Positions 1,693 to 3,962 of a DNA stretch of 17,896 bases are shown in pieces. The stretch lies in IMG/VR virus record IMGVR_UViG_643348547_000004; one strand, 5' to 3'. This stretch comes from a virus. Lineage: Duplodnaviria > Heunggongvirae > Uroviricota > Caudoviricetes. The notes under the pieces are model-generated. The model was not told the origin of the DNA, ran no database searches, and saw nothing but the letters and a program-made list of their open reading frames with translations. Made by a program: the position numbers and the translations under genes. Position 1 is the first letter of the stretch. Every line of letters begins with the position of its first letter.

Positions 1693-1743
1693 GTAGAGTA
1701 AGAGGCAGGGCGTAGTCGGACTATTTCCCTGCCTCTCCTCCCC

Positions 1744-1777
1744 GAACCGGACGTGCACCTTTCAGCGCATCCGGCTC
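1744..1777 (-). ncRNA. Group II intron catalytic domain V (34 nt)
   Basis: Minus-strand 'GAGCCGGATGCGCTGAAAGGTGCACGTCCGGTTC' closely matches the domain V consensus (AGC triad, GAAA tetraloop, bulge) and lies immediately 3' of the RT stop codon. Confidence 0.8.
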
Positions 1778-1782
1778 TCCAT

Positions 1783-3306
1783 TTAAATGCTGGCGAACGC
1801 CATTGCCACTTCTGTAAAGCGCGATGTATACGTGTTTCTGGTCTCCGTCCTCAGATAGGGATTACCTTCGGGTAGCCGCCAGCGGAACAGCTTCTTGCCT
1901 TGCCCCACCAACCGGTACAGTATTTCGCCGCTGAGCTTGCCGTGATTGGTTTTACCAAATAAAACCCACGTTTTGCTCTGACCCGGTTTCGGTGATTTAC
2001 ACCACCACCTCATCAGGGAAGCGATACCTGTACGGTATTTGCGGGCCAGCCAGTGAGCCAGCTTCCAGAACACGACACGGTCGATATAACTGAAGACTTT
2101 GGCCTTAAAATCAACGAACTGATAGAACATGGCCCAGCCTTTCAGTTTTCGGTTGAGTTGTTCAGCCATATCGACTTTGCTTTCACTGTAGTTGCCTGAT
2201 AACAGTGCTGTCAGCGATGCGGCGAAGTTTCTGGCTTTCTCCTGCGGGATCGTTGAGACCACTCGCATCTCGCCATAACGACTGCGTTTGCGAATGATCC
2301 TGTGCCCCAGAAAGATAAAGCCGTCATTAACATGGGTGATTTTAGTCTTATCCATGTTCAGCCTGAGTTTCAGACTGCCTTCGAGCACACCCCGACACTC
2401 CTCCCTGATGGCTTCCGCCTGTGCTTTGGTGCCTTTGACGATGAGGACAAAATCATCGGCATAGCGGCAGTACGCCACCGCGGGTTTCCACTGCCAGTTT
2501 TCTCTGACCGCCGTACTTCGGCCCCGTTGGATACTGTTATTCCAGTACCACCGATCTTTTCTGGCTTTCCCGCTCAGGTAGCGCTCATGCAGGTATTGAT
2601 CGAACTCATTCAGCATGATGTTCGATAATAGCGGCGATATAACACCGCCCTGTGGCACACCTTCACTGGCCGCCCGAAAGAGACCGACATCGATATGTCC
2701 CGCCTTGATGGTTTTCCACAGCAGAGTCATGAAACGTGCGTCACTGATCCTGCGGCGTACAGCCTTCATCAGCAGTCGATGATGTACGGTGTCGAAGTAA
2801 CTGGACAGGTCGCCTTCAATCACCCAGCGTCCCCGGGTTTCACCGCAGTCTGTGAGCTGTAATTTCACCGTGCGGATCGCGTGGTGGACACTGCGCTCAG
2901 GCCGGAAGCCATATGAGAGCGTATGAAAATCACTCTCCCATATCGGCTCCATCGCCATCAGCATGGCCCGCTGAACAATACGATCCCGCAACGCGGGGAT
3001 ACCCAGTGGTCGCAGTTTGCCGTTGCTTTTAGGGATGTAAACCCGTCTGGCGGGCAAGGGCTGGTAGTGGCCTGAGAGTAATTCATCCCTGAGGATTTGC
3101 AGCTCAACAGCCAGTCTGGCCTGTAGCATTGTTTTGTTCACGCCATCAACGCCGGGGGTATGGGCCCCCTTTGATGAAAGCGTGATCCGCGCCGCTTCAG
3201 CCAGCCATTCTGGTTGTGTTATTAGACGCAGCAGCCGTTGAATCCGTAGGGACGGATCGGTGGCTGCCCATGTGGCAAGCTTGCGTTGCATTTCGCTGAT
3301 TATCAA
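1783..3306 (-). CDS. Group II intron-encoded reverse transcriptase/maturase (507 aa)
   Basis: RT motifs including the YADD box (..AYCRYADDFVLIV..) and a C-terminal maturase (X) region. No Cys/His-rich HNH endonuclease motifs are visible at the C-terminus. Confidence 0.9.
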   Translation of the reverse strand: MIISEMQRKLATWAATDPSLRIQRLLRLITQPEWLAEAARITLSSKGAHTPGVDGVNKTMLQARLAVELQILRDELLSGHYQPLPARRVYIPKSNGKLRPLGIPALRDRIVQRAMLMAMEPIWESDFHTLSYGFRPERSVHHAIRTVKLQLTDCGETRGRWVIEGDLSSYFDTVHHRLLMKAVRRRISDARFMTLLWKTIKAGHIDVGLFRAASEGVPQGGVISPLLSNIMLNEFDQYLHERYLSGKARKDRWYWNNSIQRGRSTAVRENWQWKPAVAYCRYADDFVLIVKGTKAQAEAIREECRGVLEGSLKLRLNMDKTKITHVNDGFIFLGHRIIRKRSRYGEMRVVSTIPQEKARNFAASLTALLSGNYSESKVDMAEQLNRKLKGWAMFYQFVDFKAKVFSYIDRVVFWKLAHWLARKYRTGIASLMRWWCKSPKPGQSKTWVLFGKTNHGKLSGEILYRLVGQGKKLFRWRLPEGNPYLRTETRNTYTSRFTEVAMAFASI

Positions 3307-3962
3307 AGGTCTTCACCTCGTTAGGTCAGTTAATTCACGTCGCAAACACATTCAAACTGCTTCCCTTCGCCATGTAATGGGCTTTCCCCATCGCGGACTA
3401 CTACGGAAGCTCCGCCAGCCAGCGCGTCATCGGAGCCATGCCCCCTTAACATCCGTCGCTGACCTTCCCCGGTTTACCTGCCTGGACTCAGGCATACTGA
3501 GGAGGCTGCCCGTCGCACTCTTTATCCTTGCTTGCCGCAAGTTGGCAGAAGTCAGCAACGCAAGCGTGATAGACGCTGCTGCCCCGGTGTTTCGCATACA
3601 TGTCAAAACACCTTCGACCGGCAGTGCTTACGTATCACTGCCAGTTCCTCCTGCACGGCCTGTCAGATCACGTAGGCCGTGGTGACGTTTTCAACCCACA
3701 GAGGCGGATTAACGGGTTCATGTTCTTCAGCCTTTCAGTACTTAACCTTGAGGATCATCTCGGCTTAGTGATCTCGCCTCAATCCCCGTTGTCAGCGGGT
3801 TACATCACCCTGCGGGCATGCCGCAGGTCACTGCCGCTCAGGTTCTCCACCGTCACACCCGGTGGGATTGTTGGGTTTCTCATCGTGAGTTACCGGTTCA
3901 ATATTCCAGACAGACTCGCGGTTCATTTAAGCATCCATGCCCGCCCTGAACTCCGGGCACAC

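Follow-up and report, generated by a model that had tools for sequence, protein, structure and literature searches.

Our analysis of the window, the whole 17,896-nucleotide stretch of DNA under study, revealed a full-length copy of the group II intron E.c.I4 within the gene that encodes the transposase of an insertion sequence (IS) of IS629 type. We hold with high confidence that an intact, mobile E.c.I4 retrohomed into this transposase site, reading its target by base pairing and probably leaving the host copy of the IS largely silenced. Sequence identity, the intron boundaries, restoration of the reading frame, covarying ribozyme structure and target pairing were all computed and form the basis of this interpretation. 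E.c.I4 at its usual homing site in IS629 is an already known, ordinary and very common arrangement, and the window copy by itself matters little, as it represents a catalogued intron in a catalogued host. The parts of the nested arrangement are listed below.

1178..4757, minus strand: insertion sequence of IS629 type (IS3 family), 3580 bp in all, 1310 bp once the intron is removed
Ends of 1178..4757: terminal inverted repeats of the IS, TGAACCGCCCCGGG(A/T)(A/T)TCCTGGAGA, read directly
4377..4703, minus strand: orfA, 108 aa, helix-turn-helix (ORF list; Pfam HTH_Tnp_1, E = 7e-13)
4306..4422, minus strand: ALIL pseudoknot (Rfam RF01497, full model, 120.2 bits, E = 3e-31)
3963..4380, minus strand: orfB exon 1, codons 1-139 and base 1 of codon 140 (Pfam HTH_21)
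1693..3962, minus strand: group II intron E.c.I4, full length, 2270 nt (identity to catalogued and annotated copies)
1220..1692, minus strand: orfB exon 2, last two bases of codon 140 to the stop (Pfam rve, rve_3 and rve_2)

Both coordinates of the 2270-nt intron, 3962 and 1693 on the minus strand, are exact. At the 5' junction, position 3963 closes exon 1 (...GATTTTACTTACG) and position 3962 opens the intron (GTGTGCCCGG); at the 3' junction, the last intron base is 1693 (...CTTACTCTAC) and exon 2 follows from 1692 (TCAGCAC). As the flanking bases differ between the two junctions, the boundaries cannot slide. The intron ends (5' GUGUG and 3' CUCUAC) match the group II consensus GUGYG / AY, and Rfam Intron_gpII (RF00029, which covers domains V and VI and has a gathering score of 40) aligned over its full model to 1779..1693 with 64.9 bits (E = 4.8e-11), terminating precisely at 1693. 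The joined exons read TAC-GTC-AGC and encode an OrfB of 296 aa. The 234-nt ligated junction was present uninterrupted, at 100 % identity, in other IS copies of E. coli, and at least 80 % of it was found in 3096 genomes. The intron shares its strand with orfB, lies in the sense orientation and falls after Tyr139 plus one base. A sequence-only reading of the window had proposed these two boundaries and this rejoined frame, and had placed the intron sense to orfB, with the first catalytic Asp on one side and the second Asp and Glu on the other; each of these points was borne out, the residues being Asp136 and, across the intron, Asp195 and Glu231. That reading had also named a disagreeing covariance-model boundary as an outcome that would count against it, and the Rfam 3' end coincided with 1693, where the frame rejoins.

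The intron was 99.9 % identical to positions 4789689..4791958 of NC_011748 (strain 55989), a locus catalogued as E.c.I4-7 at 4789689-4791959 (supplement, PMC3522654). These published coordinates span 2271 nt, with one extra base at the 3' end compared to the 2270 nt indicated here by the uninterrupted site. The Zimmerly database names introns by a rule of >95 % nucleotide identity (quoted in PMC3552965), and the window intron lies above this threshold for E.c.I4; the comparison with catalogued introns that had been suggested as a check thereby supplied the name. Leclercq and Cordaux (2012; PMC3522654) report specific insertion positions of E.c.I4 within the transposase genes of IS629, IS911, ISEc16 and ISEc31, in keeping with what the sequence-only reading had said of E. 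coli group II introns inside IS elements. Identity over 2270/2270 nt was found with many E. coli copies, including those of CE10 and AR_0013, and identical copies carry the annotation 'ltrA group II intron reverse transcriptase/maturase', with split IS3 transposase pseudogenes on either side. Near-identical copies were detected in 1873 of 5426 complete E. coli genomes (about a third), and the best-matching place in 2721 records had an identity of at least 99 % to the query, a sign of recent spread. CE10, 55989 and S. flexneri share the insertion junction of the window, and the copy borne by ISEc31 occupies the homologous codon.

E.c.I4 and S.f.I1 have been assigned to ORF class A, without an endonuclease domain (PMC3552965). 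Both E.c.I4 and S.f.I1, its Shigella twin, have the length (~2270 nt), the IS3-family hosts and the protein domains of the window copy. Compared to the catalogued E.c.I4, the window copy shows no difference of substance, and what is particular to it is an IS located at a prophage deletion junction without a target duplication. No functional study of E.c.I4 or S.f.I1, on either splicing or homing, was found in the literature covered.

From its ribozyme and encoded protein, the features of which follow, the intron is predicted to be splicing-competent.

1783..3306, minus strand: intron-encoded protein, reverse transcriptase and maturase (RVT_1, E = 1.5e-34; GIIM, E = 1.3e-10)
1744..1777, minus strand: domain V, a 34-nt hairpin with AGC triad, 2-nt bulge and GAAA loop (Rfam alignment)
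1695..1741, minus strand: domain VI (alignment of 34 relatives)

The ORF for the reverse transcriptase and maturase (X) domains sits in domain IV, as in group II introns, is uninterrupted and is identical to WP_001189111.1, which is annotated in many genomes. The protein measures 507 aa from TTG at 3306, or 502 aa from the RefSeq start, ATG at 3291, and comparison showed conservation of the start codon. Pfam identified RVT_1 and GIIM and no other domain in the 507 aa, with no endonuclease or DNA-binding domain following the maturase domain. Domain V comprises 14 pairs, one of which changes in a compensatory way among relatives (19 sequences with UA, 12 with GC), and a compensatory pair was likewise seen in the basal helix of domain VI (AU 18, GC 12, UA 3). 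The unpaired branch-point A of domain VI, at 1699 and seven nt from the 3' splice site, was invariant in 34 relatives. The earlier suggestion that covariance models would confirm domains I to VI was realized in part: domains V and VI were matched, ending at 1693, whereas the Rfam models of domains I-IV returned no match in window positions 1600-4100 at E <= 1. The integrity of the 5' ribozyme was therefore judged by conservation and covariation. In the 5' 670 nt of the intron, 151 pairs were predicted across 27 relatives, and 93 of these showed compensatory changes.

The host element displayed the IS3 family traits of inverted repeats, two overlapping ORFs, a -1 frameshift signal and a DDE domain. 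When ligated, the IS was 100 % identical over its 1310 bp to the intact, uninterrupted IS in strain 504239. RefSeq labels near-identical copies as 'IS3-like element IS1203 family', and IS1203 and IS3411 are iso-forms of IS629. The name IS629 is used here on the basis of PMC3522654 and of this iso-form relation. The IS629/IS1203/IS3411 group shares with the window element its 1310 bp, the terminal repeat TGAACCGCCCCGGG..., the orfA/orfB -1 frameshift, ALIL and the 59/36 DDE spacing, whereas the window copy differs from the group in its intron-split transposase gene and in the lack of a 3-bp target duplication. A promoter and terminator scan of 1100-4900 gave counts at or below those of shuffled sequence and was uninformative.

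Within orfB, exon 1 carries the first catalytic Asp, D136 (WVADFTY), and exon 2 carries D195 (HSDKGSQY) and E231 (ESINGLYK). Ligation gives a DDE spacing of 59 + 36 residues, with K 7 residues after E, and raises the Pfam rve match from 68 bits for exon 2 alone to 97 bits over positions 2-101/102. Read-through from exon 1 into the intron meets a stop at 3898, after 160 aa, so a complete DDE domain cannot be translated from unspliced RNA. To this extent, the earlier proposal that transposase production depends on splicing stands, but it had taken OrfB to be the enzyme. The ALIL pseudoknot is predicted to stimulate a -1 frameshift fusing OrfA and OrfB, and RefSeq annotates an identical uninterrupted copy with 'programmed frameshift'; on these two grounds the active transposase is predicted to be the OrfAB fusion, rather than OrfB alone.

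The IS is bordered by two truncated phage genes.

723..1177, minus strand: tyrosine integrase gene, 3' remnant (prophage), cut by the IS end (Pfam Phage_integrase; intact gene in AR_0013)
4758..7669, plus strand: gene for a phage tail tape measure protein, truncated at the opposite end of the IS (Pfam tape-measure domains; AR_0013 comparison)

Compared to AR_0013, the tape measure gene lacks approximately its first 352 nt, and from the sequence the IS is placed on a deletion junction within a degraded prophage. The 3-4 bp target duplication was absent at the IS ends, where the flanks are GAC and ATC. This is due to a 36-kb deletion at the insertion site, and the missing duplication does not bear on IS3 family membership. 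The exact junction in the window was absent from complete E. coli genomes, the best records matching the tail-gene part only. An intron-free IS beside the same integrase remnant in strain 2013C-4830 was considered as an orthologous empty site and rejected, since its IS end lies 15 nt deeper in the gene and its other flank is different, which marks it as an independent insertion.

Pairing between the intron and its target was resolved for the following elements.

3971..3975, minus strand: IBS2, GATTT, exon positions -13 to -9 (pairing throughout the family, with compensatory changes)
3963..3968, minus strand: IBS1, CTTACG, exon positions -6 to -1 (pairs with EBS1)
3684..3688, minus strand: EBS2, ACGUC, intron nt 275-279 (covariation with exon -13 to -9)
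3627..3633, minus strand: delta and EBS1, ACGUAAG, intron nt 330-336 (pairs with CTTACG and, across the junction, T)
1692, minus strand: delta', T, the first base of exon 2 (orfB exon 2)

IBS2 consists of the Asp136 codon and two further bases, and IBS1 runs from the end of the codon for Thr138 through that for Tyr139 into the next one. EBS1 and delta paired with CTTACG and the following T at 7/7 positions, and EBS2 paired with IBS2 at 4/5 positions, with one mismatch at the IS629 site; exon position -1 was mismatched in many relatives. Across relatives, the observed value for EBS1-IBS1 covariation was reached by 22 of 5000 shuffles and the observed EBS2-IBS2 pairing by 88 of 20000. Full compensations of EBS2 were found at two loci, L030 (TCATC/GATGA) and L048 (AAGTA/TACTT). 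Delta and EBS1 are located in a 9-nt hairpin loop on the stem CAGUG/CACUG, with 9-17 double changes per stem pair. Two further EBS2 candidates drawn from complementarity alone, GAGATCA (intron 187-194) and TAAGTA (219-224), were rejected because neither tracks exon changes in relatives, whereas nt 275-279 do.

Our search of species-representative genomes recovered 311 relatives, in a class that had been described as three near-identical introns (class A, 2013) and later as scarce (2020). In 80 related loci, the intron occupied the homologous codon in transposase genes that have diverged widely. A 5' exon ending in GAY-N6-TAY-N was seen in 35 of the 37 loci for which it was known, the exon-2 translation, in the same phase, contained the beta-strand following the first Asp in 60 of 61, and the ligated flanks gave a junction-spanning transposase match in the sense frame in 27 of 30. 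A profile of the 5' end (first 130 nt) located no 5' end in most relatives with a protein of ~66-70 % identity, and for relatives of this kind the 3' exon alone was used. The hosts of the E.c.I4 lineage include IS3-type transposases that are 24-36 % identical to IS629 OrfB. Other hosts, with matching EBS changes, were an IS6-family gene entered between MDETY and I (L030) and an IS66-family gene (L048). At least one E.c.I4 copy lies antisense in an IS3-family gene (L004).

In the mechanism that we propose, the intron RNA would recognize its site by pairing EBS2 with exon positions -13 to -9 and EBS1, of sequence CGUAAG, with -6 to -1, and the base just 5' of EBS1 would pair with exon position +1. 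Jointly, these contacts would cover the Asp-Phe-Thr-Tyr codons, the motif with the first catalytic Asp. The intron would reverse splice into one DNA strand. Nascent-strand priming is established for endonuclease-less introns such as RmInt1, and by analogy cDNA synthesis would then presumably be primed by the nascent strand at the replication fork. Production of OrfAB from the window copy would require lariat splicing, assisted by the maturase, precisely at 3962 and 1693, and unspliced RNA would yield OrfA and a truncated protein without two of the three catalytic residues. RmInt1, in the transposase gene of ISRm2011-2, is the best-studied intron of this type and the sole case found in which splicing was measured for an intron in an IS transposase gene; it achieved about 0.07 % exon ligation in vivo and was still mobile (PMC3035460). 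By analogy, exon ligation is probably very inefficient in the window copy, and with a value as low as that of RmInt1, near-silencing of the IS is probably likelier than conditional expression. The priming mechanism, the splicing efficiency and the effect on transposition are all argued from RmInt1, a class D intron and thus of a different class. The intron may be viewed as mainly a retroelement for which the IS serves as a safe and widespread landing pad. RmInt1, from Sinorhizobium meliloti, is similar in being endonuclease-less, in homing in the sense orientation into an IS transposase gene and in spreading via the IS copies of the genome, but it differs in ORF class, occupies another IS family and has a target that is not reported as a catalytic Asp motif.

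Efficient splicing would lead to a different view, in which the IS629 copy is fully functional and its transposase output is gated by splicing as a regulatory switch. Every ribozyme and maturase feature needed for this is intact and conserved, the exons, once the intron is set aside, match an intact IS at 100 % identity, and the orientation is sense both here and in 27 of the 30 relatives with enough flank. However, the sense bias is equally expected from RNA-guided homing into one DNA strand. Ribosomes generally hinder splicing within bacterial ORFs that are translated, which counts against an efficient reaction at this position, as does the 0.07 % ligation of the sole measured analogue. In the antisense copy at L004, splicing from the transposase mRNA is impossible, and the existence of that copy indicates that spliceability is not required for the intron to persist. 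We therefore regard a splicing-gated, functional IS as unlikely.

Far less probable is a dead relic, unable to splice or move and passively carried by the IS and prophage. Enterobacteriales harbour many inactivated or fragmentary copies of group II introns (PMC3522654) and the IS is at the deletion junction of a degraded prophage, as such a relic might be; against this, the window copy has its full length and an unbroken 507-aa ORF encoding the same protein as WP_001189111.1, no differences were found over 2270 nt compared to CE10, AR_0013 and others, and the identity of at least 99 % at the best place in 2721 records speaks of recent spread. That the inserted segment is a product of chance or annotation, and not a group II intron, is scarcely credible given an Rfam match (E = 4.8e-11) ending at the junction, the presence of RVT_1 and GIIM, identical sites that are uninterrupted across the junction and an RNA structure that covaries in relatives. 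Taken together, the evidence continues to favour retrohoming of an intact E.c.I4 and, probably, a largely silenced host copy.

A more tentative suggestion, about which we remain rather doubtful, is that the whole E.c.I4 lineage is a specialist parasite of DDE transposase genes, with EBSs that read the codons of the first catalytic Asp motif, GAY-NNN-ACN-TAY-N, which encodes D-x-T-Y. A transposase would be unlikely to be able to alter the sequence of this motif much without loss of activity. If true, specialism for the Asp motif would explain how the lineage moves between diverged IS3-type transposases, and if exon ligation were also as inefficient as it is for RmInt1, the expansion of ISs would meet a natural brake in this lineage. 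The family comparison has a wider value: it illustrates cleanly how an RNA-guided mobile element can target the catalytic-site coding motif of another mobile element, and it offers a testable account of intron mobility across diverged IS families and of a possible limit on IS spread.

IStrons, which combine a group I intron with an IS200/IS605-type transposon, are likewise a nesting of a self-splicing intron and a DNA transposon (PMC4227781). In an IStron, ribozyme and transposase are combined in one chimeric element, mobile as DNA, and host genes are protected by the intron; the window, in contrast, holds two independent nested elements and the intron interrupts the transposase itself. For annotation, two 'IS3 family transposase' pseudogene fragments together with ltrA represent one otherwise intact IS and one intact intron.

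The 2270-nt group II intron of the window is a copy of a named and catalogued intron, Escherichia coli E.c.I4, in its catalogued host element, the IS3-family insertion sequence (IS) IS629. Comparison with catalogued bacterial introns thus gave a name to the intron that the sequence-only reading had placed in the transposase frame orfB. It matched many E. coli records at 100 % identity, in which the ORF is annotated as ltrA, group II intron reverse transcriptase/maturase, and the flanks as IS3-family transposase pseudogenes. In strain 55989 the match lay at NC_011748 4789689..4791958 (99.9 % identity), and the supplementary table of Leclercq and Cordaux 2012, who counted E.c.I4 copies genome by genome, lists 'E.c.I4-7, NC_011748, 4789689-4791959, +' at this locus (PMC3522654); our count of six intron places in this strain equals the number of E.c.I4 copies reported there. 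The same paper gives specific insertion positions for E.c.I4 in the transposase genes of IS629, IS911, ISEc16 and ISEc31. Toro and Martinez-Abarca 2013 assigned E.c.I4, together with its twin in Shigella, S.f.I1, to ORF class A, which is among those that lack an endonuclease domain (PMC3552965). Across 5426 complete genomes, an intron match was found in 2668, and 1873 had a place spanning 80 % or more of the intron, with a maximum of 20 intron places in a single genome. E.c.I4 in IS629 has reportedly been in the literature since 2002, and the arrangement seen in the window is already known.

Features of the window
4757..1178, minus strand: IS3-family IS, inverted repeats read directly
4703..4377, minus strand: orfA, 108 aa (Pfam HTH_Tnp_1)
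4422..4306, minus strand: ALIL pseudoknot, frameshift-stimulating (Rfam, 120 bits, E = 3e-31)
3962..1693, minus strand: group II intron, 2270 nt, starting GUGUGCCCGG and ending CUUACUCUAC
3688..3684, minus strand: exon-binding site EBS2, ACGUC, intron nt 275-279 (column scan against exon -13 to -9)
3633..3627, minus strand: delta and EBS1, ACGUAAG, intron nt 330-336 (9-nt hairpin loop, stem covarying heavily)
3306..1783, minus strand: intron-encoded ORF, 507 aa (RVT_1 E = 1.5e-34; GIIM E = 1.3e-10)
1-648, minus strand: 3' part of the host gene mlrA (yehV)

The IS carries the inverted repeat TGAACCGCCCCGGG... at both ends, and its orfB is in two pieces with 2270 nt (3962 to 1693) between them. 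Joining 3963 to 1692 gave ...GAT TTT ACT TAC GTC AGC..., restoring the predicted TAC-GTC-AGC frame and an orfB of 296 codons, in which the rve (integrase-core) domain is complete (Pfam, positions 2-101 of 102, 97 bits) compared to positions 27-101 (68 bits) for exon 2 alone. The boundaries proposed at 3962 and 1693 were upheld by a full-length match to the Rfam group II intron model for domains V and VI (1779..1693, 64.9 bits, E = 4.8e-11), the last base of which is exactly 1693, and by uninterrupted sites: many E. coli replicons contain a 234-nt ligated-junction query, unbroken and with 100 % identity, and at least 80 % of it was present in 3096 of the 5426 genomes. These boundaries cannot slide, because the flanking bases differ at the two junctions. 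Over its whole 1310 bp the ligated IS shares 100 % identity with an uninterrupted copy in strain 504239, where RefSeq annotates an intact IS3-family transposase and its programmed frameshift. The catalytic residues of OrfB are D136, D195 and E231 (spacings of 59 and 36 residues) and the insertion point follows Y139 plus one base, which agrees with the earlier placement after the first Asp but before the second Asp and the Glu. The 296-aa OrfB of that reading stands as a reading frame but not as the enzyme, which is the OrfAB fusion.

Relatives were fetched using the intron-encoded protein as query, with one genome per bacterial species. This found 311, of which the best 80 were retained (protein identity 100 % down to 66 %), from Enterobacterales, Pseudomonas, Vibrionaceae, Legionella, Rhizobiales, Nitrospira and others. 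Among 34 aligned sequences, domain V had 14 pairs, one of them compensatory (UA 19, GC 12), and the basal helix of domain VI had a compensatory pair (AU 18, GC 12, UA 3). The single unpaired A of domain VI, at 1699 and seven nt from the 3' end, was invariant in all 34 and is the expected branch point. The proposed check with intron models held for domains V and VI; the Rfam models for domains I-IV, which represent other bacterial intron classes, had no match in the intron, and the 5' fold therefore rests on covariation and not on a curated family. For the 5' 670 nt, RNAalifold predicted 151 pairs from 27 sequences (covariation term -30.6 kcal/mol), 93 of which are retained through two-sided changes.

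Pfam identified no domain besides RVT_1 (reverse transcriptase) and GIIM (group II maturase) in the 507-aa ORF. Its TTG start at 3306 has GAGGTG 7 nt upstream, and RefSeq starts the protein at the ATG at 3291 (minus strand). The TTG is kept in relatives or becomes ATG (L049, L057, L075), and the RefSeq ATG becomes CTG or CTA in others (L042, L059, L048, L051); the protein probably starts at TTG 3306.

Target recognition was examined through pairing of the intron with its exons. ACGUAAG pairs at 7/7 positions with CTTACG and the T across the junction (exon -6 to +1). Over 28 distinct intron-exon combinations, EBS1 pairing averaged 5.3/7 for cognate versus 4.9 for non-cognate partners, a covariation total reached by 22 of 5000 shuffles, and the base 5' of EBS1 paired with exon +1 without exception, L048 with its T:A change included. 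EBS2 of the window pairs with GATTT at 4/5 positions. Among relatives, AUGUC occurs at GACAT or GATAT, and ACGUC often at GACGT or GATGT; the observed EBS2 covariation was reached by 88 of 20000 shuffles. The bases recognized by EBS1 and EBS2 are the codons of Asp136-Phe-Thr-Tyr139.

The same coding motif recurs at the insertion sites of the relatives. Of the 37 relatives whose 5' exon is known, 35 have GAY-N6-TAY-N immediately before GUGYG, and a thirty-sixth, L013, keeps GAC. The 3' exon was available over at least 45 nt in 61 relatives, and in 60 of them its same-phase translation gave the strand that comes after the first Asp in these enzymes (for example, xEGWLYLAVVIDLFSRxVVGW). IS629 OrfB was matched by 28 of 30 ligated flanks at 23-93 % identity (24-36 % for most non-IS629 hosts), the match crossing the junction in one sense frame in 27 of the 30, and Pfam detected rve domains in sampled hosts. 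Two relatives occupy other transposase families: L030 (Halioglobus MAG) lies after MDETY in an IS6-family gene (DDE_Tnp_IS240, E = 3.5e-38), and L048 (Rhodothermales MAG) after HDCWASYFSY in an IS66-family gene. Their EBS2 sequences, UCAUC at GATGA and AAGUA at TACTT, respectively, are complementary to the new sites at every position. Taken together, these comparisons give good support to the suggestion that the first-Asp coding motif is the target of the E.c.I4 lineage throughout IS3-type genes, and that matching EBS changes went with its shifts to IS6 and IS66 genes. Such family-wide targeting was not found in the accessible literature, although it may stand in an intron database; earlier papers knew class A from three near-identical introns (PMC3552965) or called it scarce (PMC7306698).

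Two further E. coli copies lie outside IS629. In L003 the intron occupies the corresponding codon of ISEc31, where IBS1, the 5'-exon partner of EBS1, is less perfect. In E. coli HSP60 (L004, NZ_CM137001.1, 1601-3870) the full 2270-nt query was matched at ~100 % identity near the 3' end of another IS3-family transposase gene, in antisense, so that splicing from the transposase mRNA is impossible. This site, ...GATACTTATG followed by T (longer form ...GGGTATGATACTTATG followed by TAGTC), is ectopic with IBS1 retained.

The window intron is intact, recently spread and at its homing site, in sense orientation and with frame-restoring boundaries. Its ribozyme and maturase are conserved, and it pairs with its target. 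By inference from endonuclease-less introns such as RmInt1, a lariat-protein particle would reverse-splice into one DNA strand, and the reverse transcriptase would be primed by the nascent strand at the replication fork. Translation of unspliced RNA can give OrfA and, by reading through exon 1 to a stop at 3898 within the intron, a product of 160 aa, but not a protein with all three catalytic residues. We regard efficient splicing and a functional IS629 copy as unlikely in view of RmInt1, which interrupts the ISRm2011-2 transposase gene as E.c.I4 does that of IS629. Exon ligation of RmInt1 amounted to 0.07 % in its own host and to 0.016 % in E. coli, with the intron still mobile, and the authors of that study conclude that such introns act as retroelements and may restrain IS (PMC3035460). 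By this analogy, silencing is favoured, and the window IS629 copy is probably largely silenced.

The IS is flanked by GAC and ATC (1162-1177, 4758-4772), with no 3-bp target duplication. One end adjoins what is left of a prophage integrase gene (its final ~458 nt), beside mlrA, and the other a tail tape measure gene without about its first 352 nt. AR_0013 (L002, record 4828687-4864804) has this prophage in complete form: 36,118 bp separate the two points, and neither carries an IS. The window IS therefore marks an IS-associated deletion, and the loss of 36,118 bp indicates either such a deletion or recombination between two IS copies. The exact window IS junction was absent from the complete E. 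coli genomes of the collection. The window runs from mlrA, a known prophage integration site, to 17896 through the tail genes of the degraded prophage (tape measure, minor tail proteins, tip protein J, tail fibre). E. coli 2013C-4830 (L087, 7178-7215, against window 1163-1200) carries an IS of this type without an intron in the same integrase gene, 15 nt off, and the prophage segment on its other side differs; the two insertions are independent events at nearly one spot.

Among the relatives, contigs of 2271-2288 nt from Escherichia albertii, Rahnella, Kluyvera and Paraglaciecola (L009, L011, L014, L045), several of which are exactly one intron, bear the signature of an assembler-collapsed multi-copy repeat. 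Introns with encoded proteins 87-99 % identical to that of E.c.I4 were also found in records titled Halomonas MAG, Chryseobacterium, Microbacterium and Bacillota MAG (L010, L013, L016, L020), hosts not expected of an enterobacterial element, which could reflect horizontal transfer or assembly contamination.
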